Source of the DNA: Eledone cirrhosa | Lineage: Eukaryota | Assembly (NCBI GenBank): GCA_964016885.1 | Contig: OZ024743.1 | Coordinates: forward strand, 13,640,001-13,704,000 | DNA length: 64,000 bases | Reading direction: 5' to 3' | Shown here: in pieces, positions 6,008 to 61,538 of the stretch | How the letters are laid out: each line of letters opens with the position of its first letter | Numbering within the stretch: position 1 is the stretch's first letter | Made by a program: the position numbers and the translations under genes | The notes under the pieces: model-generated | What the model saw: only the letters and a program-made list of their open reading frames with translations | What the model was told of the DNA's origin: nothing | Database searches by the model: none

Positions 6008-8101
6008 ATGGCTACGAAAAAGAAATTTCATACGTCACTCCCACTCATTCCGTCTTCTTCTTCCTCAATCATCACTACAGCAGAGAGAAGATTGTCTCTC
6101 TCCCTCCCTTCTTTAAATGTGTCTCTCTCCCTCCCTTCTCTTTCGCAAGTGACGAAAGAAAAGAAAAGTCTCGTGCAAAGCGTGCAAGGTTTCTCCACGA
6201 CGACGACAGCGACGAAACAGGTGTGCGGGAAATACGAAAACCCAGTTCATTCGTCTGACGTCAGGAATAATAGCAGTAGCAGCCGTAATAACAACAGCAA
6301 CAGTGACAATGAAAACAACAGTAGCAGCCGCAACAGCATCACCAGCAGCATAAACAACAACAGCATTAGCAGCAGCAACACCAACAACAACCACAGCAAC
6401 AGCGGCGGAGGCAGTAGTCGTAGTACCTGCAGCAACAACAAAAGTACCAGCAGCTCTGACGACAACAACAACAGCAGAGAAAAACCAATCTCATTTGCAG
6501 GTATTGCGAAAAACCTGGAAACAATCCTCATAACAAATGAGGAATTAGAGGAAGCGAAGAAGATGGTGACCAAGAACGGACACCGAGCAATCTGCAAGGC
6601 AGCGAAAAATTTTTTCGAAACCCAAGAGCACTGTACGGTCACGTACCGTACAGTAAGTACAAAATCCCGTAGGGTGGAAAGAGCCACAGAGGCCCAAATA
6701 CAAAAAGCCTTGGGGTCTGTGTGGCAGCGGAAAACGCACATCACCCGAGGCAAAAAATATGCCACCGTAGACGTACTTTTTGCCACACCCCAGGAGGCAA
6801 AGGCCCAATCAGTAGTGACCCTAAGGAGCGAGGAAATGGTGTTGGTGCCCTCCTACTGTGGGCAAAAAATTGTGAGGGTCAAACTGACCCACGTCCCCCC
6901 CGGAATGACCCCTTCTTGGCTGGCCGCGTCTGTCCTCGTCGGAATCGAGGACAAAACAACTGTACTGCAAGTACAGAAAAAAGTAAGAGAAGATTGGGTC
7001 GGCTCCTCCATTGAGATGCTAATCCAAACCAACCAGGAGTGCATCGAAGCTATCCCGGATGTGATAGACTTCGATAACGGCACTCAACTGCCCATAAGTG
7101 TTGAGGGCAAACGCCCGAAATGCTTTCGCTGTGGATCGAAGACTCACCTCAGGGCCTTCTGCAACGAGAAGACCCTGAGAAAGGAGAAAACCCCCCTCCT
7201 TCCGAATCCGGCTCCACGGCTACCAGCAACAGGACAAGCGGCAACCAGGAACGATAGGCCCGTGGCACCCATACCCACTCCACGGAAATCAAAAACAGCA
7301 GCAGCAGTGGAAATACTAACAACAACAACAGCAATACCAAATGCAGCTGCAACAGAGACTCCAGTGCAAACATCACCAACAACAACAAGTGAAAGAGTGG
7401 AGTTGGTACCCCTCCCCGACCTCACAGAATCAGACATGGAGTGTGAGGTGGGAGAGAGATGGCAAAAGGTCGTAAGAAGGCACAAACGCAGAAGCAGCGC
7501 ATCGTCGCCTTTGAAAAGTGAGGAAAGAAATGAGAAAAGGGTAAAGTCTACTGCAAAGAGACCCACAGCAGCAACAACACCAACACCATCACCACCCACA
7601 CTAGCGCCACCATCACCACCGGCGACAACCCCACCGCCAACAACACCTTCAACACCACCACCACAAGCACCAACATCGCAAACACAACAACAAAACACAC
7701 ACACCCAGCAACAACGACAAGAAAATAGCAGAACCACACCCCACCCCCAGAAAAACAAATGCACGGCAATAAATACACACAACAAGAAACTAATGACTTA
7801 CATAATTGAACACACAGACATTTCACAACAGGACTACATAATACCAGCACCAATCAAAACGCCAACTAACATAAGACTGCTAAAAATAGCACAGAAACAA
7901 TACACAAATATTAAAACGAAATTCCCCAACGCAGTTGGTGATTTCAGGGACCTAGGAGGAACCATCAATCGAAGAGTATACTCAGACATTCTCTTAGAAG
8001 AGCCGACGACCAGCCGAAGGGACGATTCAACGGTCCCTTCACCAGACGATCAAGTGAAAAGGGATGTAAAAACCATCCCTCCTCTACCAAAAGTACGGTA
8101 A
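6008..8101 (+). CDS. Tx1-A ORF1, gag-like nucleic-acid-binding protein
   Basis: First ATG at 6008. CCHC knuckle CFRCGSKTHLRAFC; low-complexity N/S-rich and P/T-rich arms; core homologous to ORF1 of the 53 kb and 60 kb copies (ISVEGKRPxC). Confidence 0.9.
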   Translation: MATKKKFHTSLPLIPSSSSSIITTAERRLSLSLPSLNVSLSLPSLSQVTKEKKSLVQSVQGFSTTTTATKQVCGKYENPVHSSDVRNNSSSSRNNNSNSDNENNSSSRNSITSSINNNSISSSNTNNNHSNSGGGSSRSTCSNNKSTSSSDDNNNSREKPISFAGIAKNLETILITNEELEEAKKMVTKNGHRAICKAAKNFFETQEHCTVTYRTVSTKSRRVERATEAQIQKALGSVWQRKTHITRGKKYATVDVLFATPQEAKAQSVVTLRSEEMVLVPSYCGQKIVRVKLTHVPPGMTPSWLAASVLVGIEDKTTVLQVQKKVREDWVGSSIEMLIQTNQECIEAIPDVIDFDNGTQLPISVEGKRPKCFRCGSKTHLRAFCNEKTLRKEKTPLLPNPAPRLPATGQAATRNDRPVAPIPTPRKSKTAAAVEILTTTTAIPNAAATETPVQTSPTTTSERVELVPLPDLTESDMECEVGERWQKVVRRHKRRSSASSPLKSEERNEKRVKSTAKRPTAATTPTPSPPTLAPPSPPATTPPPTTPSTPPPQAPTSQTQQQNTHTQQQRQENSRTTPHPQKNKCTAINTHNKKLMTYIIEHTDISQQDYIIPAPIKTPTNIRLLKIAQKQYTNIKTKFPNAVGDFRDLGGTINRRVYSDILLEEPTTSRRDDSTVPSPDDQVKRDVKTIPPLPKVR

Positions 8102-8136
8102 GTGGTCTTTCCCATCTTTTCCACTCTATTTTAAAC

Positions 8137-11100
8137 ATGACCTCACTCAGAATAGGCAGCATAAATGCGCGTGGCTTGGGGTCGTCATGGAAGCAGGGTC
8201 ACCTGCTCAACGACCTCAGGTCACTAAACATAGATGTAGTGGCCATCAGCGAGACCAGAATCTCCGAAGCACGGGCCTTCGCACCGATCTTCGGCGGCTT
8301 CGATGTGTACGCATCTCCCAGCCGTCCTGGATCCGGTGGAGGAGTTGCTGTGCTTTTTCGGAGAGGTTTGGATCTCGCCATACGGGCCATCTTCCTGGAC
8401 CCAGAGGGTAAGCTGGTGGTGCTGGACGTGACCAGCGGAGACGGGCAAGCTTTCAGGCTAGTGGCCGTCTATGCCCCGACAGGAGCAGGGCGGCCTGATT
8501 TCTTCCGGCGTCTGGAGACCTTTCTTGGAACGTCCCGCTCTTTAGTGTTAGTGGGCGACTGGAACGGGATCTTAGATGCACGCTGGGACTGTGTGGGATT
8601 AGCGGATAGGGGTGGAGGGTGCAAGAGCCTCACCAACCTGCTCAGGCGTTTTGAACTGTCTGACAGGTACCGATTGGATTTCCCGAATGTGCCAATGTGG
8701 ACTTGGACAAACCGCATAGGGTCATCCAGATCATATCTAGATAGAGTATTTTGTAGGGAAATAGATAGGTCTAGCATAGGCTGTCCACAATTCAAGATAG
8801 TCAGCTACACGGACCACAAATTCGTGATCTGTGTGCTTGACTTAGATAGGCTTCATAGACGAGGACCCGGCTACTGGAAGCTAAACGCGTCCTTACCAGC
8901 GCGCAAGGCCTACAGAGACCGGATTAGCGAACTAGTTAAGCGGGCGTTGACGGGGGCCATCGTCAACAACAAGTGGTGGTTTGCTCTGAAAAGAGCGATT
9001 AGAATAGAATCGATTAGGTTTAGTAAGGCTTTAGCAATAGAGAAAAATAGAGCAGAGGGAGAACTAGTTAGAAAATTAGACGAGGCGCTTAGCAAAGGCA
9101 TTGCGACCGACGTGCTTGCGGCGAAATTGGCCCTTGACCAATTCTTCAATGCAAAGCACGAAGGCTGCGTTGTCAGAGCTAGGGTGCGTGCTCTCAGACA
9201 CGAGGGGACGAAAGCCGTTCAATGGGCCCGAGTGGCGGAGGCGCGTCGTGGCAACAAAGCCACGATCCGGTCTTTGGTGGACCACGACGGGCGCATGCTA
9301 CTCGATCCCGGGCAAATGTGTGAAGCTTTTCAGCGACACTTCGCTCAGCTGTTCGGGGGCAGCGGGGGGCCGGGTAGAGGGATGGACTTTAGTGTCTACC
9401 TCGACGGACTGCCGCGGCTCTCGGCCACTGAGGCGAAGTGTTGCGAAAAGCCGATAACAGCCGCTGAAGTACGGGAGGCAATGACTGGCTGCACAAGGGG
9501 TAAATCGCCTGGTTTGGATGGTCTGCCCTATGAACTTTACGTACAGATGCCAGACTTGTTCGGAGGCCTCTTGGCGGACGTCTACTGCAACTGGCAACAG
9601 AACGGGAGAATTCCCAGTTCTGTGAGCCGAGGAGCGGTGGCACTGCTGAGAAAGGATCCGAACAAGGGGGATAACATAGACAATTTCCGGCCCATAACTC
9701 TGCTAAACACAGAGTTTAAGATTTTGGCCAAGGTGCTAGCAAAGAGGTTGGCGCTTGTCGTTGGTGGTCTGGTGGGAGAGGCGCAGACATGCGCCATTCC
9801 CGACAGATCCATCCACGACAACCTCCACCTCATGCGATACATCGTAGAGAGGGTAGCTAGGGAACCTGGCACGGGTGGGTCCTTGATCAATTTAGATCAG
9901 TCGAAAGCTTTCGATAGGGTCGACCATCGTTACCTAGCGGCAGTCCTGAGGGCGGCTGGCTTTGGGCCCGTCTTCAGAGGCTGGATCGCTGCCATGCACA
10001 GCGACATCTGCTCTGTGGTGAGAGTGAACGGTCACCTGTCGGAACCGTTCAACATCATGCGCTCGGTCCGCCAAGGATGTCCCCTCTCGTCCCTCTTGTA
10101 CGTATTGACTCTCGAGCCATTACTGCACAAACTGGAGACGTTGAGGGGAGTCCCGCGCGAACTAGGATGCGGAAGATCCGTGTCAGCATATGCGGACGAT
10201 GTCACCGTAGTGGTGTCGAACGCCAAACACATCGAGGCGATCGGCACTACACTAAGAGAATACGAAGCGGTGACAGGAGCAATGATCAACCAGGAAAAGT
10301 CAGTGGGCCTGCAGCTCGGCACCTGGAGAGGCAGGTCCATGCCGTCCAACAGCGTCGTCGGGCGCTGGACGGACGGACCGGTTAAATTGCTAGGGGTCTG
10401 GTTCGGTCCGGACCTCCAGACGGACAAAAACTGGGACGAGGTGACGAGCAGGGTGGCTTCTCTCACCCAGAAATGGGCGGAGAGGAAGCTATCCCTGAAA
10501 GGTCGAGCGGAGGTGGCTAACGCGTACATCGCGTCTGTCATCTGCTACCGCCTAACCGTCGTACCTTGTCCTAAGCCTCGCCTGACTGCGCTGGAGCGTT
10601 TGCTCTTTCGCTTTTTGTGGAAGGGACGTGCTCCGATGGTCAGGCGGTCCATCTGTTGTCAACACCCGCTACGTGGAGGGCTGGGCATGCCGTGGCTGAT
10701 GATGCGCAGGCACGCGCTCAGGCTACGACATCTCCACCTCTTCCTCGACGGTGATCAGGTGTGGTCGCCGTTTGCTAGACGCGTTTTTCCCCAGCTCGTT
10801 TCCTTGACGGAGCTGCAGTCCTGGGTCAAGCGAAGACCGAGAGGGAGCGCCTGGAGACTGGAATGTCTTCAGGCGCTCACAGCCCTCGACCAATCGGGCA
10901 ATGTGATCGGTGGAAGCTCCACCTCGGCGTTCTATAGAGGATTAGTGGAGGGGAAGAGCGACGACGTACTTGGGGAAACTCTAGGCGTCGACGAAAATCA
11001 ACTAGCCAATCTCTTCGGAAGAACTTTCGGGCCGGGGCCTATGGACAACTTCCAGAAATCTCTGGCCTGGCAGTGCTACCGAGGAGCCTTGCCAGTTCGG

Positions 11101-11556
11101 GATAAACTCTACAGGCATGGAGGTGCCGTCAGCCGGGCATGTCCGAGATGCGCGCAGGGCGACGAAACCGTCCTGCACGCACTCGTCCAGTGTCCGAAAA
11201 TTGCTGACTTGTGGGTTTATGTCGAACACCTGCTGTCGCGTTTAGGACGGATCCAGCTATCATCTGAGTCTATCGTGAGGATTGCCCCGCCCTCCTCCTT
11301 TAGCCGGGAAGGGCAGGCAGTTTTTATCTGTCTGGTGGCCATGGCGAAAGAGATAGTATGGTGGACACGTTTGAAAGGGCTGAAGACGAGCACTTACCTC
11401 TTCGGTGATGCTCTGATTGACTTTTTCAAATTTCATTTGAAAAGGAAAATCAGAGTAGAGAAGGAAGTGCTCTCTTCCCAGCATTTTGTTGAAAGATGGG
11501 TGAGAGAAGCAAGAATGGCCCGAGTGAATGGGCCGACTCTGAGTATATATCTGTAA
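8137..11556 (+). CDS. Tx1-A ORF2: AP endonuclease, reverse transcriptase and C-terminal Cys/His zinc finger
   Basis: APE motifs SINARGL, ISET, VYAP, GDWN, SYLDR, TDH. RT motifs KSPGLDG, FRPITLLN, DQSKAFDRV, RQGCPLS, YADD. CPRC..ETVLHALVQC. 1139 aa uninterrupted. Confidence 0.97.
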   Translation: MTSLRIGSINARGLGSSWKQGHLLNDLRSLNIDVVAISETRISEARAFAPIFGGFDVYASPSRPGSGGGVAVLFRRGLDLAIRAIFLDPEGKLVVLDVTSGDGQAFRLVAVYAPTGAGRPDFFRRLETFLGTSRSLVLVGDWNGILDARWDCVGLADRGGGCKSLTNLLRRFELSDRYRLDFPNVPMWTWTNRIGSSRSYLDRVFCREIDRSSIGCPQFKIVSYTDHKFVICVLDLDRLHRRGPGYWKLNASLPARKAYRDRISELVKRALTGAIVNNKWWFALKRAIRIESIRFSKALAIEKNRAEGELVRKLDEALSKGIATDVLAAKLALDQFFNAKHEGCVVRARVRALRHEGTKAVQWARVAEARRGNKATIRSLVDHDGRMLLDPGQMCEAFQRHFAQLFGGSGGPGRGMDFSVYLDGLPRLSATEAKCCEKPITAAEVREAMTGCTRGKSPGLDGLPYELYVQMPDLFGGLLADVYCNWQQNGRIPSSVSRGAVALLRKDPNKGDNIDNFRPITLLNTEFKILAKVLAKRLALVVGGLVGEAQTCAIPDRSIHDNLHLMRYIVERVAREPGTGGSLINLDQSKAFDRVDHRYLAAVLRAAGFGPVFRGWIAAMHSDICSVVRVNGHLSEPFNIMRSVRQGCPLSSLLYVLTLEPLLHKLETLRGVPRELGCGRSVSAYADDVTVVVSNAKHIEAIGTTLREYEAVTGAMINQEKSVGLQLGTWRGRSMPSNSVVGRWTDGPVKLLGVWFGPDLQTDKNWDEVTSRVASLTQKWAERKLSLKGRAEVANAYIASVICYRLTVVPCPKPRLTALERLLFRFLWKGRAPMVRRSICCQHPLRGGLGMPWLMMRRHALRLRHLHLFLDGDQVWSPFARRVFPQLVSLTELQSWVKRRPRGSAWRLECLQALTALDQSGNVIGGSSTSAFYRGLVEGKSDDVLGETLGVDENQLANLFGRTFGPGPMDNFQKSLAWQCYRGALPVRDKLYRHGGAVSRACPRCAQGDETVLHALVQCPKIADLWVYVEHLLSRLGRIQLSSESIVRIAPPSSFSREGQAVFICLVAMAKEIVWWTRLKGLKTSTYLFGDALIDFFKFHLKRKIRVEKEVLSSQHFVERWVREARMARVNGPTLSIYL

Positions 11557-14428: not shown

Positions 14429-14905
14429 TATATTAGCTATTTCACTATGTTTTAAATTGCCTTGTCCGACGAACGAACGAGGACGTTTTTAATAAACACG
14501 TATAATAATATAAATAAGGAAGCTAAAGAATTAGCTAGTTCTTTAAAAATAGATAATAGGGCAGAAAAACTTGCTAAACGTAATGCATATATCACCCTTA
14601 AATATCACAAACCTGACTTTATTAATCCTCCTAGTTGTAGATGAATCAACCCTACTAAGACTGATATCGGCCTTGCCAGCAAAAAAATTTCAAATAATAT
14701 AAACACACAGATTAGAAGTAAGTCTGAATTACTCCAATGGATAAATAGCTCTTCCGTAGTACATTGGTTTAATAATATTAAAGATAAAAATAGTTCTAGA
14801 TTCCCCCAATTTGACATTGTAGATTTCTACCCGTCTACCACTCATACTCCTTTTGCGAAAGCCTTAAATTTCGCTATAAAGTTTACCAATATCTCTGATA
14901 TTGAA

Positions 14906-15550
14906 GTGAATGTCATCTTGCATGCTAGAAACACTCTACTCTTTACTGATAATGACACTTGGGTAAAAATATCTAACCCAGAGAACCCATTCGATGTCTC
15001 AATGGGCTCGTTTAACAGTGCTGATGTTTGTGATTTAGTCGGCCTATTCCTCCTACACACACTTAAAGAAAAATTCCCTAACCATATTTTTGGGCTTTAT
15101 CGCGACGATGGTCTAATAGTTTCCCATACCACCATAGGCCATAACTTAGATAGATTAAGGACATACTTAATAAAAACCTTTGCTAGTTTTAATCTTAAAA
15201 TTACTATTGCCACTAACCTTTCCAATGTTAATTTTCTAGATATAAACCTAGATTTGCCTACTGCTTCTTATAAACCATACCATAAACCTAATGAAAATTT
15301 AAAATATATAAATAAAGGCTCTTGCCATACTCCTATAGTTTTTAAAAACCTTATCCCTAATATTAGCCGTAGGATCTCCACCCTCTCTTCCTCAGAAGCT
15401 ATTTTCAATAAGGCATCCCCCTACTATAATAAAGCCCTTCAAAATAGCGGATTTAGCGAACCGATTAAATACATACCAAACAATACTAACTCTTTTAAAC
15501 ATAATAATAGGAAAAGAAAAATAATCTGGTTCACACCCCCTATTCTCTAG
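14906..15550 (+). pseudogene. PLE RT core fragment
   Basis: GLYRDDG catalytic motif and thumb region; flanked by stops and frameshifts. Confidence 0.85.
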
Positions 15551-15798
15551 CAGTTAAAACTAATGTAGGCAAAAAATTCCTAGAGCTCTTAGATAAACAT
15601 TTCCCTAGAACACATAGATACTATAAGATCTTCCATAGAAACTGTGTCAAAATTAGCTACTCCTGCGGTCCCCCTATTAAATCCTATATCATCAATAAGT
15701 AATCACCCAGAGAACATCAAAATTGCTCCTGTAGAGTCAAAAGTGAATACTCATTACAAGGTAAATGCAACACCAAAGCCATTGTATATGCGGCTAAA

Positions 15799-16167
15799 GT
15801 GACAACCATCAGCAACAACCAACCAGCCACCAGCGAACGATATGTGGGTATGACACAAGACAAATTCAAAATGCGTTATTACTCACATGTCGCATCTTTC
15901 CGACATCCAGAAAAAAGATTCACAACAGCTCTGGCTAGCAGAATATGGGATTTGAAAGACCAAGGTATCCAATATAAATTGGATTGGTCAATTTTGAACC
16001 AATCTAAAGAATATGCAAGAGGAACAAGAAGATGCACACTCTGCATAAGCGAAAAATATTGGATTTTACAAAACCTTAAATCACCAAAAACCTGCCTAAA
16101 TACAAAAAACAGAAATATTCAGCAGTTGCCCACACATGAAATCACATTTGCTATCCAGCTCATATAA
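15799..16167 (+). pseudogene. PLE GIY-YIG endonuclease fragment
   Basis: YVGMT..FKMRYYSH..SF, TALASRIW, CTLCISEK. Confidence 0.85.
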
Positions 16168-24184: not shown

Positions 24185-24230
<46 letters not shown>

Positions 24231-24293: not shown

Positions 24294-24598
24294 GAAGTGG
24301 TTACACAACAGTTAGTTCACCATACCGAGAACAATTGTTTCAGCTTAGCGGATCTTCAGCTCGGGATGTGCATGGTTATAGGAACAGGAAGGACAACCAT
24401 ACGAACGCGCATGCGCAGAAACTCGGTCACTTCAGCCACTTCGTCTAGTATTGCCTGTGTGAAGTGGACCGAGTTTCTGCGCATGCGCGTTCGTACGGTT
24501 GTCCTTCCTGTTCCTATAACCATGCACATCCCGAGCTGAAGATCCGCTAAGCTGAAACAATTGTTCTCGGTATGGTGAACTAACTGTTGTGTAACCAC

Positions 24599-24601: not shown

Positions 24602-24644
<43 letters not shown>

Positions 24645-26009: not shown

Positions 26010-26490
26010 TACGTTATTCCGGGTTGAATCGGAGGTAACCACAGTAAGTAAGGTACTCAATGCATAGCAGAGTATAAAAGTTTTAATATAGATGAGATTC
26101 TACAGGACTAGAACTGTTTCATTCTTTAGAAATCATCAGGAATCTGGGTATCACAAAATAAATATGGTATTTATAGGTCTCTTCAGGTGGTAGGAGAGGG
26201 TAGCGTGTGGGATGGGTACAGGTCATTGGTTGATAGAAAAGGGAATGCCCATACCCACTCCTTCAGGAGACCGGACAAATCAAACCAGACAACACTCGCC
26301 TCCTATGTTTGGGACCTCAAAAGGAACTCCACCCCCTTCACACTTAAATGGAAAATACTCCAGAAAGCGCGCTCTTACAACGAAGGACACAAGGGCTGCG
26401 AAATATTATTCGCCAAGGCGCCGCTACTGAACAAACTCTCTAAACACTGCCCGAACTGCATGCACAAGAACTTTGCAACTTTCAAATAAA
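26010..26490 (+). mobile_element. PLE fragment: inverted pLTR piece plus GIY-YIG C-terminus
   Basis: HTHSFRRPDKSNQTTLASYVWDLK..LKWKILQKARSY..C..CMHK. Segment 26010-26240 matches 30455-30685. Confidence 0.75.
26095..26145 (-). ncRNA. Type I hammerhead ribozyme
   Basis: AGATTC-CTGATGA-tTTCtaaaGAAt-GAAACAG ttctagtc CTGTA-GAATCT. Confidence 0.85.
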
Positions 26491-27084: not shown

Positions 27085-29245
27085 TAAAATAAAGATAAAG
27101 ATACTGACAAAAATAAAAGCGAAGAAGGGGGTGAGAAAGAAGAAAAGAAAAGATAGCCAAGAAGGGGAGGGAAGGAAGGAGCCACTTAGGCCTAGTACCC
27201 CCACATTTAACCTCAAGGACCACAAGGTAAATTTTGATTATAACCCCCAATTAGACTTATATGCCCGTCCAAATCGGACATCAGTAAAATTAGTAAACAT
27301 ATATTAGACAGAGTCATAGCACAAATAATCTAGTGATTAAACTATGGGGTAACGCTACCGAAACAATTAAGTGGTTTAACAATATAGCTAACAAAGAAGT
27401 ATCTAAATTTATACAAGCTGACATTAACGATTATTACTCATCTATATCCCCCAACACCTTGGATAAAGCCTTATCATTCGCCAAAGCCAATTCTGACATA
27501 ACAGACGACGAGATAAATATCCTATTAGCTGCTAGGAAAACAATAATTAAATTTGAAAACGCCTATCGGGAACGTAAGGATAGATTAAATAACTTTGACA
27601 TCACGATGGGGGCCAACGACTCGGCTCAAGTCACATATTTAGTAGGTATTTACATAGCCCATAGTTTACAAAGTGAGTTTAGCGACCATCACGGTGGAAT
27701 CTACAGAGACGACGCCCATATCCTACTTAAGAACCTAAATAACCAGAGCATAGAAAGACTCCGTAAGAATATTAGAAAGACTCTCGGAAAACTAGGCCTT
27801 AGCATAACGTATGAGTATATCACTAAAACAGTTAACTTTCTAGACGCGACGCTTAACCTAAATACGGGACTTATAAGACCTTTTCACAAGATTAATGACA
27901 ACTTAGCATACATCAACTGTAACTCAAACCACCCACTATCCATAATTAAATCCATTCCACGCAGCATGTCCCTTAGGATCTCCCGCCTCTCCTCTAACCA
28001 ACAAATCTTCGAAGAACATGCAGAATACTTCAATACCGCATTAGACAAGCCAGGCCACTTAGATAGAGTAGAATGTATAGATGAAAGCCTCCGTGAAGCG
28101 CACACGAACACGCATAACACAAACACCGGTAACACACGCACACACGCACTTACGCATAGAACTGCAAAGTATACGGCAAATAGAAATACAACATCGAAAT
28201 CAAACAAGTCACGCAGTAGAAAATATATTTGGTATAACCCCATATTTAACACCTCTATTAGTACTAACCTACCCTCTACTTTCTTTAGAATAATAAATAA
28301 GCACTTTCCAGATTCACATAGATACAGCAAAATCCTTAACACTAAATCTATTAGTCTATCTTACTCCACGGCACCAAATATAGAGGCACACATTAAGATG
28401 CTTAACGCTAAAAGATACATAACAACACCAAAACACACATTTACAACAATAACAATACAATCACCACCGAACACAACAGAATATCTAATACACAACCACC
28501 CGCTAATAGGCAAACAAAACGTAACACACTTGTACAGGCATCGCAGCCCACAAATAATGCCAAAGTTGCCCATGACAAGAACTGTAACTGCCACCTACCT
28601 GAAACCTGTCCATTACATAATGAATGTATGCATCTAACCTGGTTTACCAATGCACAGTGGAATCAGACAACCAGAAGTAGTATTACATCGGAGCGACTGG
28701 GAATACATATAAAGCCCGTTGGTATATACACCGTTACGCAATGAAATATTCCCAGACCGTTATGTAACTACGCTTGCAAACAAGACTTGCAACTGAGGGA
28801 AAGTAACCATCAATACACCATGAAGTGGAAAAAATTATCGAACGCGCCCCCATATCGGAGTGGTATGAGGAGCTGTCGATTATGCGACCTTGAGCTGTTC
28901 CCCATCTTAAGTTCGAAAAATAAGTTACTCAACAATAAAATCGAAAGATCAATTTATTGTAACCATAGACACAAAGAGAGGTTTTCGCACTACAAATCGA
29001 ACCCTTAACCTCTTACTACCAACTGACAAACTGCATATACTTAGACATTATACCCTCTTGTTGTATCTAAACCCTTTTAATTACCCACAAAACCAATACA
29101 AATATCCCCCACTTCTCCCTCATTCCTCTTCTATTTCTTCGTTTTATCCTTCCTTCCCTCCCCTTCTTGGCTATCTTTTCTTTTCTTCTTTCTCACCCCC
29201 TTCTTTGCTTTTATTTTTGTCATTATTATATTTATCTTTATTGTA
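27085..29245 (+). mobile_element. 5'-truncated Penelope-like element with about 100-bp inverted terminal repeats
   Basis: 27085-27180 is the reverse complement of 29146-29245. RT and GIY-YIG coding remnants span 27185-29008. Confidence 0.9.
27333..28637 (+). pseudogene. PLE RT plus linker (YRDD)
   Basis: DINDYYSSI, FDITMGANDSAQV, GIYRDDA, VNFLD, RKYIWYNP. GIY-YIG continues in other frames to 29008. Confidence 0.88.
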
Positions 29246-29322
29246 TATATATATATATATATATAAATTAATAAAATAATGAATAAACAAAGAAACAGTT
29301 CCTTATATTAAAAAAATTCATC

Positions 29323-29454
29323 ATTTTACGATCGTTTCTAGGATATATATGTGTTAGAGTTGGTATGCATATTCTATAGATCTATGTACAATATTTATAC
29401 AAACTATCAGAGGGAATATACATACCTACACATATATATGCTGTCTTCAGAAAT
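29323..29454 (-). ncRNA. Hammerhead-like ribozyme with 105-nt helix II
   Basis: ATTT-CTGAAGA-[long hairpin: ATATATATGTGT/ACACATATATAT, GGTATGTATATTC/GAATATGCATACC]-GAAAC GATC GTA-AAAT. Confidence 0.7.
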
Positions 29455-30304
29455 AATGATATTTGTTTATTGAAAAAAACAAAGATTCAATACAATAGGT
29501 CTGTTTGGGAACAGGTTTTGAATTGACCAATAGAGAGATAGTGAGGGTCAAGATAGTAATATAGTAGTAGAAGAACCTTAAATTATGGTAAGAGGAGGGT
29601 AGATTTCAGTTTTGGATGGAAAAGAATATTATGAATGAAGGATTATTTTAGGGAAGAAATAGGTCGTATGCTGACCTCAGAAATAATTTTATTTGTTCAT
29701 TGAATAAAACCAACAAAGATCTAATGTATTCTGTCTGTTTGGTAAGTGGTTTAGAATTAACCAATAGAAAGTTAATAATTGGCCAAATGGTAAAATAGTA
29801 GTAATTGAAGCTTATTTTAGGGATGAAAATAGGTCAGGTGGTCAGTAAAAGGTATACAAGCAGTTGCTGTTATAAAATAGTAAAGCCAATGCAAATATCT
29901 AAGGTGACTAAAGTTTTACGATAAGAATGTTAGTGAAAAAAATACATCTATGAAAAGATTATAAATTAATTTAATTAATGGGTATATTTATATTGATAAA
30001 ATTATACTATATTCCTACCTCTTTCCCCTTCCTCTCTCTCTATACTATTCCGTTTGTCCCCTCACCTTCTGATTCCTCTCTCTCTATACTAGTAAATACA
30101 ATTCCAAATAAACGTTTTTCTCTATATATTAAGAATTATTTCAAGAGTAACTTACTATTTTGAAAATTTGCACTGTGAACAACAATTATATTTGAGTGGC
30201 TGCTATTTGCAGTATAGCAATATAAGGTTGCACTTACCAATGAAACGGTCGTAAATACCTGGATAAAATCCTTCTCTCAATGCTTACCTGTGTTTTCTCT
30301 TTTA

Positions 30305-30356
<52 letters not shown>

Positions 30357-30405
30357 GCAAACACACATATATATATATATTATATATATATATACACAAA
30401 CATAT

Positions 30406-30454
<49 letters not shown>

Positions 30455-30455
<1 letters not shown>

Positions 30456-31030
30456 GTTATTCCGGGTTGAATCGGAGGTAACCACAGTAAGTAAGGTACT
30501 CAAAACATTGCAGAGTATAAAAGTTTTAATATAGATGAGATTCTACAGGACTAGAACTGTTTCATTCTTTAGAAATCATCAGGAATCTGTGTATCAAAAA
30601 ATAAGTATGGTATTTATAGGTCTCTTCAAGTGGTAGGAGAGGGTAGGGAGTGGGATGGGTGTAGGTCATTGGTTGATAGAATAGGGAATTCATTAAAAGC
30701 TAATTCTTCAAAGCTATAGTTTATTTTTAGAGTAACAAAGGCAGAAAGAATTCTATAAACAAGTTCAGGAAGGGGTGCCACTCATTATTTTTAAGTTTCT
30801 CTTAAGCTAACAGGTGTCTATAAGATCAGTTGAGGTCAGTCATGGTTCATAGATTTAAAGGAAAGGGAGATTCTTTAAAAGCTAAATTCTTTAAGGTTGT
30901 ACTAAGTGACAAAGGCCTAGAGAATTCTGTAGACAAATTCAAAATATTGAGTGCATATCATACGATTATCTGCAAATTTCTCTTAAACTATTCAACTATA
31001 TGCCAAAAATCAACAGACACATTCACAAAC
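30455..31030 (-). repeat. PLE pLTR-like segment, inverted relative to 37500-38020
   Basis: Diverged reverse complement of 37500-38020; contains a hammerhead. Confidence 0.8.
30538..30588 (-). ncRNA. Type I hammerhead ribozyme
   Basis: Same sequence as 26095-26145 and 37942-37992. Confidence 0.85.
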
Positions 31031-31058
31031 ACACTCACGCGCACCCACAAACAACCAC

Positions 31059-31107
<49 letters not shown>

Positions 31108-31184
31108 TATATATATATATATATATGTGTGTATGTGTATATGTATGTGTATGTGTATATGTATGTGTATATGTATGTGTATGT

Positions 31185-31234
<50 letters not shown>

Positions 31235-31871
31235 ACATACACATACATATACACATACATATACACATACACACACATAGACACACACATATATATATAT
31301 ATATATATACATATTTATTAAATAACATAATAGAGCGATCGTTATACTGTAACCATCGCTTAAAATCCACATTTTCATATTACAAATACTACCAGGATTG
31401 AACGCCTGTCTCCATCTCCGTTTGATTGTCAAAATACATATTAACATTCTCTATTAGTCTTAATTCTATCAACTCTTCTATTATTTACCATTTAATACAA
31501 ACTGCTATAGATAAAATGAGATTTCAGATTTCTTGATTCAATTCCCTAATGCATATACCAGCTGGCTACTAGCATTGATGTCATTTAGTAGCAATCGAAA
31601 TCTCCCCCTTTCCCCAATTGACACTTTATAATTAATACTACTGCACCAAATGACCAGCCCTGTCCACTGTCCAGTTGGTCAAGTAGAGATTAAAATTGGC
31701 ACTCCCAAAATTCTTATTTAAATTTACTCATGGTATTCTCATTAGAAACCCATTAGATACTTGTTTAGCAGTAAATTAATTTACCATCTGTCATATACTA
31801 TCCCCTCTGTTCCTTCCTCCTTTACTAATATAAATACTTCAATGTTTCTGATTTTATCCAATTTATCCAAA

Positions 31872-31988
31872 ATCTCTGAAGAAGTGACAACTGATTATAC
31901 ATTTGCTATCGAATACTTGCTAACATTATATGATTACGCAAGCAGCGATACATAGGTATTCGGTCTGTTACAGAAACATATGTCAATA
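31872..31988 (+). ncRNA. Hammerhead-like motif with 90-nt helix II (5' pLTR)
   Basis: CTGAAGA 31876-31882; hairpin GTGACA/TGTTAC, ACTGA/TCGGT, ATCG/CGAT, TTGC/GCAA; GAAAC ATAT GTC 31973-31984. Helix I weak. Confidence 0.55.
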
Positions 31989-32199
31989 CCTAATAAATTC
32001 CTTTTTTAACAAAAGCACTTTCATTTTATATTCATCCTTTCTACATTTTCTCCGGAATATAATTTATACTCGTTGAGCCAACCTGCACGTACGCTGTTCA
32101 TCTCTAACGTAACGATATATTATCACTACATTATTGATAACCTGAAATTTTATTAATCTCCTACACAGTTGAGCAACTAATTCAGCATACGCCTCTAAA

Positions 32200-34515
32200 A
32201 TGGAGAGGCACCAATTGGATATGTCGTTAAAAAACATACCTATTCAGGCAAAAAGGGAATATATTCTAGGTATGATACGAAGGACCAATGATTTTATTCG
32301 ACGAATCAGATGGAAAACATTCCATTTTGACAAAAGCCGTATAAACCAAACATCGGATCTTAACAAGGATAAATTTGGATTTAAATCTTACAAGAACCCA
32401 CCCTCAAACCCACTTTTGGATGCATTTGAACAAGACCTAATGGATATGATCATGGAGATCAAATTTACAAAACGGAAGAACAATAAACTACAGAATGACA
32501 TCACGGCACTGCTCAATAATCTAAAAAACGCCAATGGAATTATTGTTAGAGCAGACAAAACATCAAACGTATATACCATGGATGTGGACACTTACAATAA
32601 CTTCATCCGTAAGGAATTGCATAAAAAATACAGGAAAACTAATGAAGCTACACTTAAAAACATCAACAACTCGGCATGTGATATTGTTAAAAAACTTTGT
32701 ATTGACGATAGAACGCAACCCTTAACACCAGCTATACCTTCCTTCAACCTGAAGGACCACAAGGTAAACTTCGATACTAACCCTAATATTAGACTTATAT
32801 GCCCCTCTAAATCTGATATAGGCAAAATTAGCAAATATATACTAGACAGAATTATCCCCCAAGTTAAGGTTAAAGTAGAGATTAAACTATGGGGTAACAC
32901 TCATGAAGCAATAAGATGGTTTAATAACATTACTGATAAGAAAAAATCAAAATTTATTCAGTTTGATATTGATGAATATTATTCCTCAATTTCACCTGAT
33001 ACTCTACATGAAGCTCTTTCGTTCGCTAAGGATAATTCCGACCTTACGGATGCTGAAATTAAAATTATTATGGAAGCGAGGAAAACTATAGTTAAATTCG
33101 ATGATAGCTACTGGGTTCGCAAAGATAGACCTTCTAATTTTGATATCACTATGGGTTCTAATGATTCGGCGGAAGTAACAGATCTTGTGGGAATTTATAT
33201 CACCCACAGATTACAAGGAAAATTCAAGGATCTCCACGGTGGAATCTACCGTGACGATGCGCTCCTATTAGTTAAGCATATGAATAACCAGAATTTAGAA
33301 AGGATGCGTAAAAATATCAGAAAGCTTTTTAAGGAACTAGGATTAAATATTACATTTGAATATAACCTCAAAGAGGTCAATTTCCTTGATGTTACTTTCA
33401 ATCTCAATACAGATACGATTAAACCGTTCCATAAACTAAATGAGAACCTTAAATATGTAAATATGAGTTCTAATCATCCACTCTCTATAATTAAATCCAT
33501 CCCTAGAAATGTTTCTCTTAGGATCTCCCGCCTGTCGTCCAACCAACAAACCTTCAAAGAACATGCCGAGTATTATGATGATGCACTTAGGAAAGCCGGT
33601 CACCTAGATAATATAGATTATATAGTCAAAGATCACCAAAACACCCAAAATAAATCACATAGGAGTAGAAATAGCACAGAATCACCACCATACATACACT
33701 ACCGCAATAGACACAATAATAGTCGCACACCACCAAACAGAAGGCGATGTAAGGAGTATATACAACCCGGTCTATAACAACTCTATTAAAACCAATCTAC
33801 CCTCAAAATTCTTTCGATTAGTTAAAAAACACTTTCCAACATCACATAAATATAATAAAATCTTAAACCCTAACACTATTCGACTTTCATATTCAACCGC
33901 CCCTAATATTGAACAACATATAAAAAAGGTTAACGCAAAACGGTTGTATAAACGCCTTCCAACACATAACAATACACGTAAAACATTAGCTATAACATCA
34001 CAAAACAACAAACAACATCCTGTCCTACATAAGCAACCTCATCAACCCATCCATGGCAATACAACAACGCAAAATTATAATTGCAACTGTGTCCAACCAG
34101 GAATGTGTCCGTTGAACAATCACTGTCTTGAACGCAACATCGTATACAAATGTACTATCGAATCGGATAGACAGAAGTGGTACTATGTGGGATCTACAGC
34201 CACCTCCTTCAAATCACGCCTTTATAGACATCGTTACTCGATAAAACATGAAAACCAGCGTTATGTAACAACACTTGCAGACAAGGCTTGGCAGCTGCGT
34301 GAAAATAACCAACAATTTCACCTAAAATGGGATATAATAGCGGCTGCCCCCCCCCATATTCCCATGGACAGGAATTTTGTAAATTATGTAATGTAGAATT
34401 ATTTTGTATTATGAAATCCAAAAACATTTTATTAAATAACAGAATAGAGCGATCGTTATACTGTAACCATCGCTTAAAATCTACATTTTCATATTATAAA
34501 TACTACCAGGACTGA
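32200..34515 (+). pseudogene. PLE polyprotein (N-terminal region, RT, Cys linker, GIY-YIG) with about two frameshifts
   Basis: SLKNIP, IVRADKTSNVY, LKDHK, FDIDEYYSSI, GIYRDDA, CNCVQPGMCPLNNHCL, NIVYKC..YVGST..FKSRL, CKLCNVE, CNHR. Frame breaks near 33770 and in the C-run near 34350. Confidence 0.92.
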
Positions 34516-34985
34516 ACGCCTGTCTCTATCCCCGTTTGATTGTCAAAATAGATATTAACATTCTTTATGAGTCTTAATTCTATCAACTCTTCTATTATTT
34601 ACCTTTTAATACAAACTGCTATAGATAAAATGAGATTTCTGATTTCTTGATTCAATTCCCTAATGCATATACCAGCTGGCTACTAGCATTGATGTTATTT
34701 AGTAGCAATCGAAATCTCCCCCTTTCCCCAATTGACACTTTATAATTAATACTACTGTACCAAATGACCAGCCCTGTCCACTGTCCAGTTGGTCAAGTAG
34801 AGATTAAAATTGGCACTCCCAAAATTCTTATTTAAATTTACTCATGGTATTCTCATTAGAAACCCATTAGATACTTGTTTAGCAGTAAATTAATTTACCA
34901 TCTGTCATATACTATCCCCTCTGTTCCTTCCTCCTTTACTAATATAAATACTTCAATTTTTCTGATTTTATCCAATTTATCCAAA

Positions 34986-35102
34986 ATCTCTGAAGAAGTG
35001 ACAACTGATTATACATTTGCTATCGAATACTTGCTAACATTATATGATTACGCAAGCAGCGATACATAGGTATTCGGTCTGTTACAGAAACATATGTCAA
35101 TA
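34986..35102 (+). ncRNA. Same hammerhead-like motif (3' pLTR)
   Basis: CTGAAGA 34990-34996; GAAACATATGTC 35087-35098. Confidence 0.55.
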
Positions 35103-35259
35103 CCTAATAAATTCCTTTTTTAACAAAAGCACTTTCATTTTATATTCATCCTTTCTACATTTTCTCCGGAATATAATTTATACTCTTTGAGCAAACCTGC
35201 ACGTACGCTGTTCATCTCTAACGTAACGATATATTATCACTACATTATTGATAACCTGA

Positions 35260-35312
<53 letters not shown>

Positions 35313-35660
35313 TATAGACACATATACATACGCATACATACACACATACATGTATATACATACATACACACATACATATATATACACACATATACATACA
35401 TATATACACTTATACATGCATGCATATATACATATATATATATACACACACACGCATATATATATATATGTGTGTGTGTGTATATATATATGTATAGATG
35501 TATATATATATGTATATATGCATGCGTGTATATGTTTATATATGTATATATATGTATGTGTGTACGTATATACATGTATGTGTGTATGTATGTGTATGTA
35601 TATGTGTCTGTATGTGTATATATATCTATATATATATACATGTGTGTGTGTGTATAAATT

Positions 35661-35711
<51 letters not shown>

Positions 35712-35768
35712 TTATATGTATACATGTGTGCATATGTGAGTATATATATGTATATATATATATATGTG

Positions 35769-36263
35769 TGACTTTGGACATCCTCCAGGACTAAAAACAA
35801 AACCTGTCAAAGGGCAAAGACCTCTTAAGAGTCAATGGCCATCCAAAATCACCGGGAGAGATGACCCCTTAGCCTTTGTCAAGGCAGAATTCTAGGAGAA
35901 GGAAAACTCTGATATAACACCTGCAACCCTGATGGTATCCAATGATGTTGACTTGTTCTTCTTTTTGGTAAATATCATCTTGGTTAAGAGAGTGGGACTG
36001 GCTTTGTGCAGTGCCTTTGCTCACTATAAAAGCTTCACGGCACAGGCATTGCTTTATATCTGGAGATCTCTCTGCACTTGTCGTCACATGGTACCATGGG
36101 CCCAGCACTATGTGTCAATAATTGTCACAAGTGTAGTGTTTGTACCAGAGTTTTCAAGTCGCTGGCTGGACTAAAAAGTCACACTCGTTCAGCGCATCGG
36201 TAGGGGTTCTCCTAGATGGATATAAAGTAGTGGCCGTACTCGAAAACGAGTTGGCAGCCACCA

Positions 36264-43002: not shown

Positions 43003-43197
43003 ATAAAACAAGGACGAGTGGTTACTGCTTCATTACTGTTATTGGTTGGAGACGCGCGTTTCGCCATCAAAAGGGTCTGACGAGATTACAGAATTGGGAT
43101 TAATCGATACAGATTGAACTTTGACCTGATCGGTGGCGAAACGCGCGTCACCAATCAATAAACGTAATGAAGGAGTAACAACTCGTCCTTGTTTTAT
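43003..43197. repeat. Short inverted repeat (about 65-bp arms) built from a pLTR-like end
   Basis: ATAAAACAAGGACGAGT..GACGCGCGTTTCGCCA versus TGGCGAAACGCGCGTC..ACTCGTCCTTGTTTTAT. Confidence 0.8.
43074..43152 (+). ncRNA. Hammerhead-like ribozyme with 54-nt helix II
   Basis: GGT-CTGACGA-[imperfect hairpin]-GAAAC GCGC GTC-ACC. Confidence 0.65.
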
Positions 43198-43203
43198 GTT
43201 ATT

Positions 43204-54769: not shown

Positions 54770-54802
54770 GTCTCTACACTCTCCTTTGGCTCTGCCGCCC
54801 AC

Positions 54803-57800
54803 ATGGATGTGTTAAGAGTAGGATGTTTGAATGCACGTGGCCTGGGCTCAACTTGGAAGCAAGCAAAGCTTCTAAATGACCTCAGGTCATGTAGTATAAA
54901 TGTAATGGTTATCTGTGAGACTCGAATCAGCGTCATGCGGCAGCTGGCCCCCACCTTCGATGACTTTGAGGTGCATGCATCTCTCTGTCAACCTGGAGGT
55001 GGGGGTGGGGTTGTCGTACTGCTGCAAAAACACCTGGGTCTTGCCGTACAGGTTGTGCACTCGGACCCGGAGGGTCGTTTGTTGGTGCTAGACGTTGGCA
55101 GTAGTGAAAGTGCGGCCTTGAGACTGGTCGCCGTCTACTCCCCTTTCGGAGCTGAACGGCCCGACTTCTTCCAATGTTTGGAGACTTTTCTGGGAACGTC
55201 GCGTTCCCTGCTTCTAGCGGGGGATTGGAATGACATCCTGGATGCACGTTGGGACTATGCAGGAGCATGTCCTAATAGAGGGGGGTGTAACAGCCTCAAG
55301 GGGTTACTCGACCGTTTTAACTTGGTCGATAGATATCGACTAGATTTTCCAACTGTGCCTACCTGGACTTGGAGAAACCACAGTGGTCAATCTAGATCGT
55401 ACTTAGATAGATTCTTAGTTAGAAGTAAGGATAGGGACATATTAAGCTGTCCAGAAATGCGCACGGTTGGCTACACGGATCACAAATTAGTGACCTGCGT
55501 GGTCAATCTCGAGAAAACACATAGACAGGGTCCCGGTTACTGGAAACTTAATTTGTATTTACCGGCAAAAGAGACTTACAGAAACCGGATTAGCAGATTA
55601 GTTAAGGAGAGGTTGACGGGTGCAATCGTCAACAACCGATGGTGGGCATCTCTCAAAAGAGAGATTAGAACAGAATCAATAAGTTATAGCAAGATGTTAG
55701 CTGCCGATAGGAATAGAAACGAGAAAGAATTAACAGGTAAATTAGAAGAGGCAATCAAGAGCGAAGATGTGGCCAGAGTGCTGGCATCGAGGACGGCCTT
55801 GAACCAGTTTTTCGATGCAAAGCATGAAGGCTGCGTCATTCGAAGTAAAATACGTGCTCTAGGTAATGAGGGGGCCAAAGCCGTTGGATGGGCCCGCGTG
55901 ACAGAAGCTAAGAGTGGAAATCGATCCACCATCCGGTCGTTGCAAGACGAAGATGGACGAGTGATCCGGGAGCCTAAGCAGATGTGCGAGGCCTTTCAAA
56001 AGCACTTTGCCCGATTGTTCGGGGGAGGCGAGGGTCCGGGCCGGGGCGTGGATTTCGGTCCATACCTCGACGGCCTGCCGCGTCTCTCGAACAAAGAGGC
56101 AGAGTCCTGCGAGGGACCAATCTCGGCTGATGAGATCGGAGATGCGCTGAGCCAATGCAGCAGACGCAAATCTCCAGGTCTCGATGGTATACCTTACGAA
56201 CTTTATTTAGCAATGCCGGTCTTCTTCTCCGAACTCCTCGAAGCGGTCTACTGCAATTGGGAGCAGAACGGGAGAATTCCTTGTTCTGTAGCCAAGGGCA
56301 TAGTCACGCTGGTGAGGAAGGACGAGAACAAGGGGGATAGTATAAATAATTTTCGGCCCATAGCCCTGCTAAACACAGAGTTAAAGATTTTGGCCAAGGT
56401 GTTAGCAAAGAGGTTGGCGCTTGTCGTGGGTGGCCTGGTGGGAGATGCGCAGACATGTGCTATCCCATCCAGGTCCATTCACGATAACCTCCACCTCATG
56501 CGATACATCATAGAGAGGGTTGGCAACAAACCCGGCTTCGGTGGGGCCCTGATCAACTTGGATCAGTCTAAGGCCTTCGATAGGGTCGACCATGGTCACC
56601 TGGATGCGGTGCTAGCGGCGGCTGGGTTCGGTCCTGTTTTCAGAGGCTGGATCACTGCCCTACATAGCAACCACATCTGTTCTAGGATCAAGGTGAACGG
56701 CTACCTTTCGAAGCCGTTCGAAATCACACGATCCATTCGACAGGGGTGCCCTATCTCCTCCCTTCTGTACGTATTGACTCTCGAGCCTTTACTGAGGAAG
56801 TTGGAGTTGTTGCAGGGTATCCCCCTGGAACCAGGATTGAGCAAACGTAACAGTAATGGTATCAACCGACTCGGAGATCGAGGCGATCGGTACCTTACTG
56901 GAGGAGTACGAAAGGTTGTCAGGAGCGAAACTGAACCGGGAAAAATCCATCGGGCTGCAACTCGGAACGTGGAGAGGCAAACCGATGCCTCCTGACGGTG
57001 TCGTCGGACACTGGACGGAGGGCCCGGTAAAGTTGCTTGGGGTCTGGTTTGGACCGGACCTCCAGGTGGAAAAGAACTGGAACGAGGTTACGAACAAGGT
57101 GTTTGCACTAACCCAGAAATGGGCCAAGTGTAAGCTGTCCCTAAAAGGCCGGGCGGAGGTGGCGAACATTTACATAGCGTCCGTCACTTACTACCGCCTG
57201 ACTGTCGTGCCTTGCCCTAAGGAAACACTCACCACCATGGAACGCATGCTCTTCCAATTTCTTTGGAAGAAGCGTCCTCCTATGGTGAGAAGATCCATCT
57301 GCTGCCAACAACCTTCGAAAGGAGGGCTGGGGATGCCGTGGTTGATGATGCGTAGGCACGCATTAAGGCTACGGCACCTACAGGTATTCCTCACTGGTCA
57401 ACCGGTGTGGGCTCCGTTCGTGAAACGAGCCTTTCCGAGACTCGTCTCACTCACCGAGCTACAGTCCTGGGTCAAGCAAAGATCCGGAAAACTGGGAGAC
57501 TGGCACACTGAGTGTGCTCCGGCGCTCAGGGCTCTCTGGCAAGCGGGCCAGGCCATCGGTGGAGAATCCACCTCATCATTCTATAGAGGGCTGGTGGCTA
57601 GCAGGGGCGATGACACCCTTGGAGAGTCGCTGGACATGGAAGAAGACGAACTGGCCAGCCTGTTCGGTAGGACTTTCGGCCCAGGACCAATGGACAACTT
57701 CCAGAAGTCACTGGCCTGGCAGTGCTACCGAGTGGCTCTACCCGTTCGAGAGAGGCTCTACAGACACGGGCGCCCGGGCAGGGATCCCTCAAAAAAGATT

Positions 57801-58217
57801 TGCCCTAGATGCGTGCGTCACGAAGAAACCGTAGCGCATGCATTGGTGCAATGTCCGGGCGTGGCTGATCTGTGGGGCTACGCCGAACAACTGCTGTCGC
57901 GGGTGGCGCCGATTAAATTGACCGCCGAGTCCGTGATGACAATCAAACCGCCTCCCCTCTTCACAAAGGAAGCAAAGGCGGTTTTTCTGTGCGTAATAGC
58001 CATGTTGAAAGAGGTTGTTTGGTGGACACGATTGAAAGGTCTGAGGTCAGGCAACTTCCTCTCTGGCCATAGTCTGGTCTACTTCTTCCGATATCACTTC
58101 GGAAGAAGGATAAGAATGGAGAGAGAGGTGCTTGGCCACAGGCAGTTTTATGAAAGGTGGGTGATAGTGGCGAGAATGGCTCGTGTAAATGGGCCTTCTC
58201 TGTATACCATCCTGTAG
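54803..58217 (+). pseudogene. Tx1-B ORF2 (APE-RT-zinc finger), split by a 23-bp deletion of the YADD motif
   Basis: ORFs 54803-56995 and 56856-58217 are collinear with Tx1-A ORF2; junction at 56845/56846. Confidence 0.93.
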
Positions 58218-61497: not shown

Positions 61498-61538
61498 GTG
61501 CACCTTTCGTCCTTTTTCTCCAACTTTTCTTCACCAAC

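Follow-up and report, generated by a model that had tools for sequence, protein, structure and literature searches.

Type I hammerhead motifs with an expanded helix II in Penelope-like elements of Eledone cirrhosa

The closest described relatives of the motifs analyzed here are the hammerhead ribozymes of Penelope-like elements (PLEs). According to the available text of Cervera and de la Pena (2014; PMC4209133), these lie on the sense strand in the pLTR or the 3′UTR of the element and combine CUGANGA and GAAA boxes with a short helix I, a 2-bp helix III whose self-complementary loop implies dimers, an extra nucleotide after A9 and a U3-A8 variant of the core, the last seen as a covariation among approximately 1,300 PLE hammerheads of Schistosoma. 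The same text reports a helix II of 6-8 bp, a highly conserved G10.1-C11.1 pair, and low cleavage activity of minimal PLE hammerheads in vitro. The sites described below lie in a 64,000-nt window of the Eledone cirrhosa genome (all coordinates are positions in this window) and resemble the published ones in strand, location, boxes, helices I and III, the nucleotide after A9 and the core variant. They differ in that the arm occupying the place of helix II measures 54-105 nt, forming up to ~35 bp, and in that three of four long-arm families carry a 1x1 mismatch in place of G10.1-C11.1.

Other systems share single features with these sites. In Naiad PLEs (Craig et al., 2021; PMC8557442) the two halves of a hammerhead core (HHR_half_core) lie 35-50 nt apart, likewise beyond standard descriptors, and relaxed descriptors gave no further matches; the accessible part of that paper describes neither a closed helix II nor a helix III. 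Naiad elements carry an N-terminal endonuclease and are reported there to lack canonical hammerheads, whereas the elements of the window have a C-terminal GIY-YIG domain. Metazoan non-LTR retrozymes are, like some of the units described below, short non-coding elements with type I hammerheads, and the available text of two sources proposes that they are non-autonomous PLE derivatives (PMC7229834; bioRxiv 10.64898/2026.07.22.740005). They occur, however, as head-to-tail tandem arrays (repeats of 170-400 nt with one hammerhead each) that give rise to circular RNAs, whereas the mini-elements of the window are dispersed or head-to-head, and no head-to-tail array surrounds any hammerhead site in the window. 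The Rfam model Hammerhead_1 (RF00163) has the same core and strand order, yet does not match the window sites. In the accessible literature on hammerheads with a long or extended stem or helix II we found nothing closer, 6-8 bp already counting as long there, although we do not claim that such motifs are absent from print.

We consider it fairly probable that the window sites are genuine type I PLE hammerheads whose helix II has grown into a rod of 54-105 nt and which would cut themselves after GUH only as a dimer, two copies being held together by the self-complementary helix III. The boxes, the sense-strand position, the closed rods and the compensatory changes on which this reading draws are direct observations. 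The sites and the elements that carry them are as follows.

29319-29458, minus strand: family A hammerhead (from fold, descriptor and alignment), with the helix I 5′ strand at 29458-29451, CUGAAGA at 29450-29444, a 105-nt arm at 29443-29339, GAAAC GAUC GUA at 29338-29327, the predicted cut at 29327/29326 and the helix I 3′ strand at 29326-29319
29263-30009, minus strand: family A copy of 747 bp, 5′-truncated, comprising part of the 3′UTR only and adjoining (TA)n
30156-30257, plus strand: family E hammerhead, UAUU / UUGAAAA / 75-nt arm / GAAAC GGUC GUA / AAUA
27244-30305, plus strand: 5′-truncated family E PLE, coding at 27244-28996, followed by a 3′UTR that the family A fragment interrupts and that terminates in (TA)n
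31876-31984, plus strand: family B hammerhead of the 5′ pLTR, CUGAAGA, 90-nt arm, GAAAC AUAU GUC
34990-35098, plus strand: family B hammerhead of the 3′ pLTR, identical in motif to the 5′ pLTR copy, the two 3114 bp apart
31309-35267, plus strand: full family B PLE, with pLTRs at 31309-32153 and 34424-35267 that are 98% alike in self-comparison
~32200-34479, plus strand: family B RT and GIY-YIG coding region, in two overlapping ORFs
43060-43202, plus strand: family C mini-element, with the hammerhead at 43077-43149 (54-nt arm, loop GCGC) and an inverted partial copy upstream at 43052-43065
24330-24565: inverted pair of short PLE ends, with hammerhead-like motifs at 24536-24565 (plus strand) and 24330-24359 (minus strand), flanked by (TA)n

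A first-pass annotation, made from the sequence alone, had listed five of these hammerheads with their boxes. A descriptor applied to both strands of the window (CTGANGA, at most 200 nt, GAAA-X-NNNN-X′-T-H) recovered all five at the same coordinates and placed the first of them, family A, on the minus strand (29327-29450; CTGAAGA, 105 nt, GAAAC GATC GTA). The box C3 U4 G5 A6 N7 G8 A9 is present as CTGAAGA in families A and B, as CTGACGA in family C and as UUGAAAA in family E. G12 A13 A14, the A15.1-U16.1 pair and an H17 other than G are found at all sites (GAAAC....GUA or GUC). Helix III is minimal: positions 15.2-16.2 together with loop 3 are palindromic in ACGAUCGU, ACAUAUGU and ACGCGCGU, and the corresponding segment of family E, ACGGUCGU, is self-complementary with two G-U pairs.

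The boxes are short and a relaxed descriptor yields spurious nested matches, as would be expected if short motifs had simply been juxtaposed by chance in AT-rich repetitive DNA. Requiring a gap of 20-150 nt and a palindromic loop, we observed four matches (three distinct sequences) in the window, compared with a mean of 0.067 and a maximum of two in 300 dinucleotide-preserving shuffles of it; none of the 300 reached four, and chance is thus ruled out as the source of the motifs. The frequency in shuffled sequence, which the first-pass annotation had proposed as a check, therefore lies far below that observed. A stricter descriptor, under which helix I had to reach 4 bp, the loop had to be self-complementary and the arm had to close at its base, gave 160 matches in 926,264 nt of window and retrieved loci and none in any of five block-shuffles. 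Since the loci were retrieved for particular families, the copy numbers among these 160 matches are not a census, and families B and C, which fail the helix I criterion, are outside the count. Strand and position are also fixed within PLE families and the arms fold better than shuffled sequence (z-scores below). We therefore reject chance juxtaposition, which retains next to no probability.

In an Rfam scan of the whole window no hammerhead was detected, either at gathering scores or at E-values up to 10; the best score for RF00163 was 14.3 bits (E 1.1; gathering score 34), for one family C copy at another locus (L176). The same scan returned dozens of sub-threshold matches to miRNA families on palindromic TA/TG microsatellites (e.g., 31159-31260 and 35420-35503), which look like low-complexity artefacts. 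The expectation that existing models would overlook the sites was thus borne out. The accompanying proposal of an under-recognised architecture holds in this respect, but the long arms do not form a distinct class and instead mark one extreme of a gradual size distribution: under the stricter descriptor, arms of 12, ~26-36 (most clusters), 45-62, 75, 97-107 and 143 nt occur, and across this genome helix II grades continuously from 12 up to 143 nt.

Folded in isolation, each arm forms one rod whose closing pair joins the first or second base to the last or second-last one, in agreement with the earlier remark that the inserts fold back on themselves. Minimum free energies, each compared with 200 shuffles, are -33.8 kcal/mol for arm A (z -5.55) and -25.5 kcal/mol for arm B (z -4.21), with no shuffle as low in either case, -20.0 kcal/mol for arm E (z -2.51) and -18.2 kcal/mol for arm C (z -1.23). 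The 12- and 13-bp stems previously noticed in the family A insert are both part of its minimum-free-energy fold. Related types found at other loci also carry closed arms: A′ (89% alike A, arm of 114 nt, z -3.15), A″ (76% alike A, arm of 107 nt, U3-A8 core, z -5.19), B′ (arm of 90 nt, loop GUAC, z -2.00), C′ (arm of 62 nt, z -1.89) and a further type, H (arm of 97 nt, z -6.34). Helix II would be directed away from the catalytic core, so that the length of the arm would be free to drift; a long arm would be tolerated and may stabilise a core whose helices I and III are weak. The roles that the first-pass annotation had suggested for the long helix in protein binding, editing or as a small-RNA module are speculative.

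The short helix I pairings that the first-pass annotation had assigned to three of its four sequence types hold for family E (4 bp) and family C (3 bp), but the helix of family A is longer, with 8 bp in the fold (CAUUAUUU / AAAUGAUG) and 9 bp in the three-sequence alignment. Where the core meets the arm, a 1x1 mismatch is followed by pairs in families A (C-A), B (A-A) and E (U-U); a U-U mismatch at 10.1-11.1 is tolerated according to the available text of earlier work (PMC3088659; for axolotl, PMC7229834). Among the four long-arm families only family C has the canonical G10.1-C11.1 pair, which is seen in its relatives: most of these have 60 nt between the boxes, starting with GCCG and ending with GGC, whereas the 54-nt arm of the window copy has lost 7 nt of the relatives' arm.

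The PLE families to which the sites belong are all high-copy in this 3-Gb genome (1248-3001 candidates per family in a first-look search). Like the published hammerheads (PMC4209133, available text), the motifs lie in the pLTR or 3′UTR on the PLE sense strand, here 40-64 nt upstream of the 3′ end of the element. A tblastn search with five PLE proteins found RT/GIY-YIG coding regions upstream of the motifs on the matching strand; within the window, coding regions were detected at 14462-16116, 26169-26474, 27244-28996 and 32200-34479, all on the plus strand. Among sampled copies the motif is intact in 33/33 of family A, 33/34 of family B, 32/33 of family E and 26/46 of family C. The first-pass annotation had described the motifs as recurring in unrelated pLTRs. 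They do occur in several different PLE families and, in family B, in both pLTRs, since the 98%-alike direct repeats around the coding region place both 90-nt motifs in the pLTRs of a full element; the family A site, however, is in a 3′UTR fragment and the family C site in a mini-element, and families B and E are not unrelated, sharing an identical 7 nt after the cut and ORFs that are 68% identical.

Every PLE end that we examined adjoins (TA)n or (TA)n(TG)n (29244-29265, 30300-30455, 31004-31330, 35267-35800, 24186-24230 and 24605-24640), which suggests a strong insertion preference; in one case a PLE sits inside a microsatellite that is internal to another PLE. In the inverted pair at 24330-24565, 11 nt separate the boxes and can form at most 2 bp, helix I has 5 bp and the loop is AAUU; there is no hammerhead match in Rfam. 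The window also contains three LINE-type ORFs (7942-11556, 54770-58217 and 61467-63998; 69-75% alike in DNA) with endonuclease/exonuclease/phosphatase, RVT_1 and zf-RVT domains.

For the family A motif with its flanking sequence, the first-look genome search gave 1248 or more candidates, at ~99% identity. Among loci brought into one orientation, the 5′ limit of homology varies and the 3′ limit falls 64 nt past the predicted cut (150-270 nt later in a minority); 29263-30009 is thus a 5′-truncated 3′ piece. In the longest copies, homology extends far enough upstream to include same-strand sequence coding for a PLE C-terminus. The window copy lies within a (TA)n tract internal to the 3′UTR of the family E PLE with the ORF at 27244-28996; at other loci the end of this ORF and the segment that begins here at 30012 lie on the same strand, ~175-187 nt apart. 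Family A also contains an internal duplication of ~155 nt (29437-29588 and 29667-29822, 74% alike) in which the helix I strand and a box-1-like CTGAGGT recur, with no second arm or GAAAC following.

The genome contains no fewer than 1371 family E candidates, at 97-99% identity. The first-pass annotation had set its 75-nt site aside as decayed. That description does not hold: TTGAAAA and GAAAC-loop-GUA occur as in the window copy in 32/33 sampled copies, and U3 and A8 are able to pair as C3 and G8 do, in the manner of the published PLE covariant, so that family E has a variant core rather than a decayed one. The single arm-base change in the window copy breaks a G-C pair that is kept in 31/33 copies.

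In family B, the 534-aa ORF (32173-33777) has 62 homologues, most of ~700 aa, and the second, overlapping ORF has a weak GIY-YIG match. Its helix I has 1 bp adjoining the core; a distal helix I of 7 bp is possible when read by eye and is absent from the predicted fold. In families B and C, positions +8 to +13 past the predicted cut read AATAAA (window 35106-35111; L176 ~1626-1631), a possible polyadenylation signal that overlaps the possible distal helix I strand. In an unbiased sample of 30 loci containing the 169 nt after the family B cut site (L146-L175), no copy (0/30) starts at the predicted cut; the 5′ ends are instead concentrated 11-23 nt ahead of box 1. Head-to-head pairs are frequent in family B, with one arm ending ~59-62 nt and the other ~169 nt after the cut (window 34965-35267), which leaves a tail of ~107-113 nt that exceeds the published 30-40 bp. 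Cleavage of these motifs, like its dependence on dimers, is inferred from the published PLE family.

The absence of the cut site among these copy ends is also what would be seen if the hammerhead with its long arm served mainly as a cis-acting 3′ module for the PLE reverse transcriptase, self-cleavage being secondary or dispensable, and insertion of an Anolis PLE in vitro is indeed unaffected by catalytic hammerhead mutants (PMC11167929). The mini-elements point the same way. Families C and A″ occur mainly as mini-elements that consist of a hammerhead and a 40-60-nt tail and start at helix I or 1 nt before it. Family C is old, with ~3000 candidates at 72-84% identity to the window copy, and its typical copy is a discrete unit of 148-149 nt, from 17 nt before box 1 to 53 nt after the cut; among the BLAST pieces 35/101 begin at unit position 1 and 82/101 end at 148-149. 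The A″ mini-element (~187 nt, ~1700 candidates; L204:2014-2200) has its 5′ end 1 nt before helix I, and 26/40 non-self long matches begin at query position 10. Many family C units are head to head, and copies of C and A″ are dispersed or inverted. Nevertheless, such preferred 5′ ends, including the cluster in family B, may equally mark the start of the template RNA, and the catalytic boxes are conserved as catalysis predicts, down to the change from C3-G8 to U3-A8, none of which a mere protein-binding hairpin would need. We regard a predominantly RT-directed module as unlikely beside the self-cleaving hammerhead that we prefer.

A further suggestion, more speculative still, is that the hammerhead with its long arm constitutes a minimal mobile unit, represented by the mini-elements of 148-187 nt that start from helix I and number in the thousands. 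Dimers paired through helix III might then present a rod of ~80 bp to the RT or to host dsRNA-binding proteins, and the ribozyme fold would be a handle for retrotransposition beyond its role as a cutter.

Comparisons between diverged relatives bear on whether the fold has been maintained. As the counts come from sequence alignments, broken pairs are upper bounds and kept pairs are undercounted. Of the family A pairs placed on A″, 28 are the same, 2 are kept with a change on one side and 5 with changes on both (2 of these in helix I), 8 are broken and 8 gapped. Between C and C′, 16 are the same, 1 is kept with a one-sided and 4 with two-sided changes (helix I and the base of helix II contributing 2 each), 6 are broken and 1 is gapped; for B and B′ the figures are 14, 3, 2, 11 and 3, in the same order. 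The core covaries as well, being C3-G8 in A and U3-A8 in A″ and E. Compensatory changes have thus kept both helix I and the basal part of helix II paired in diverged relatives. The covariation within families that the first-pass annotation had proposed to look for did not emerge in family C, where 3 covarying pairs compare with 1.0 +/- 0.9 in shuffles and 39/500 shuffles reach 3; a flat signal of this kind is what neutral decay after insertion predicts.

Some of these results count against cleavage: the complete lack of cut-site starts in the family B sample, the mismatches at 10.1-11.1 in A, B and E, the single base pair of helix I in B, the flat covariation in C, and the 11 broken as against 2 compensated pairs of B and B′. 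In addition, box 1 is base-paired to the region of helix III in the minimum-free-energy fold of the family C unit, an inactive alternative. One could accordingly regard the motifs as inherited, non-cleaving relics, with long arms that expanded neutrally (TA/TG slippage being one possible route) and are carried along by young families. The non-canonical 10.1-11.1 positions, the weak helix I of family B and the lack of covariation inside family C all accord with such a history, as do the (AU)n(GU)n-like outer stem of arm A and a family C subfamily in which CCGA replaces CUGA (5/16 of the first 16 copies; the 46 distinct copies scored above are L176:1523-1671 and 45 others). It is harder to reconcile with the persistence of the boxes, the self-complementary helix III and arm closure across nine or more sequence types with flanks that do not otherwise align, and with the compensatory changes in helix I and the core, and we judge it distinctly improbable.

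The PLE family with the ORF at 14462-16116 would also be in keeping with relics, its terminal motif being a poor fit to a hammerhead. This family is high-copy and has a 3′UTR of ~1.5 kb rich in TG/TA repeats. No motif fitting the descriptor was found within 1.5 kb downstream in 20 loci (L121-L140), and five stretches further downstream had no shared homology. A candidate at its 3′ end (TTGAGGA, ~82 nt, GAAAC CTCTGG TAA; L127:3116-3218) resembles a hammerhead but fits poorly: it has U3-G8, its helix III is not palindromic and its arm remains open.

Overall, the expanded helix II is a variant of the known PLE hammerhead motif, the type I core itself being already known. Surveys of PLE hammerheads usually rely on descriptors or covariance models that limit the length of helix II, and the nine or more sequence types of this one genome escape such limits; PLE families scored as lacking hammerheads may therefore simply bear long-armed ones. 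The range of 12-143 nt amounts to free growth of helix II in active elements, which is useful both for ribozyme engineering and for the re-annotation of PLEs, and the hammerhead-only mini-elements provide a handle on the question of what the hammerhead does in PLEs.
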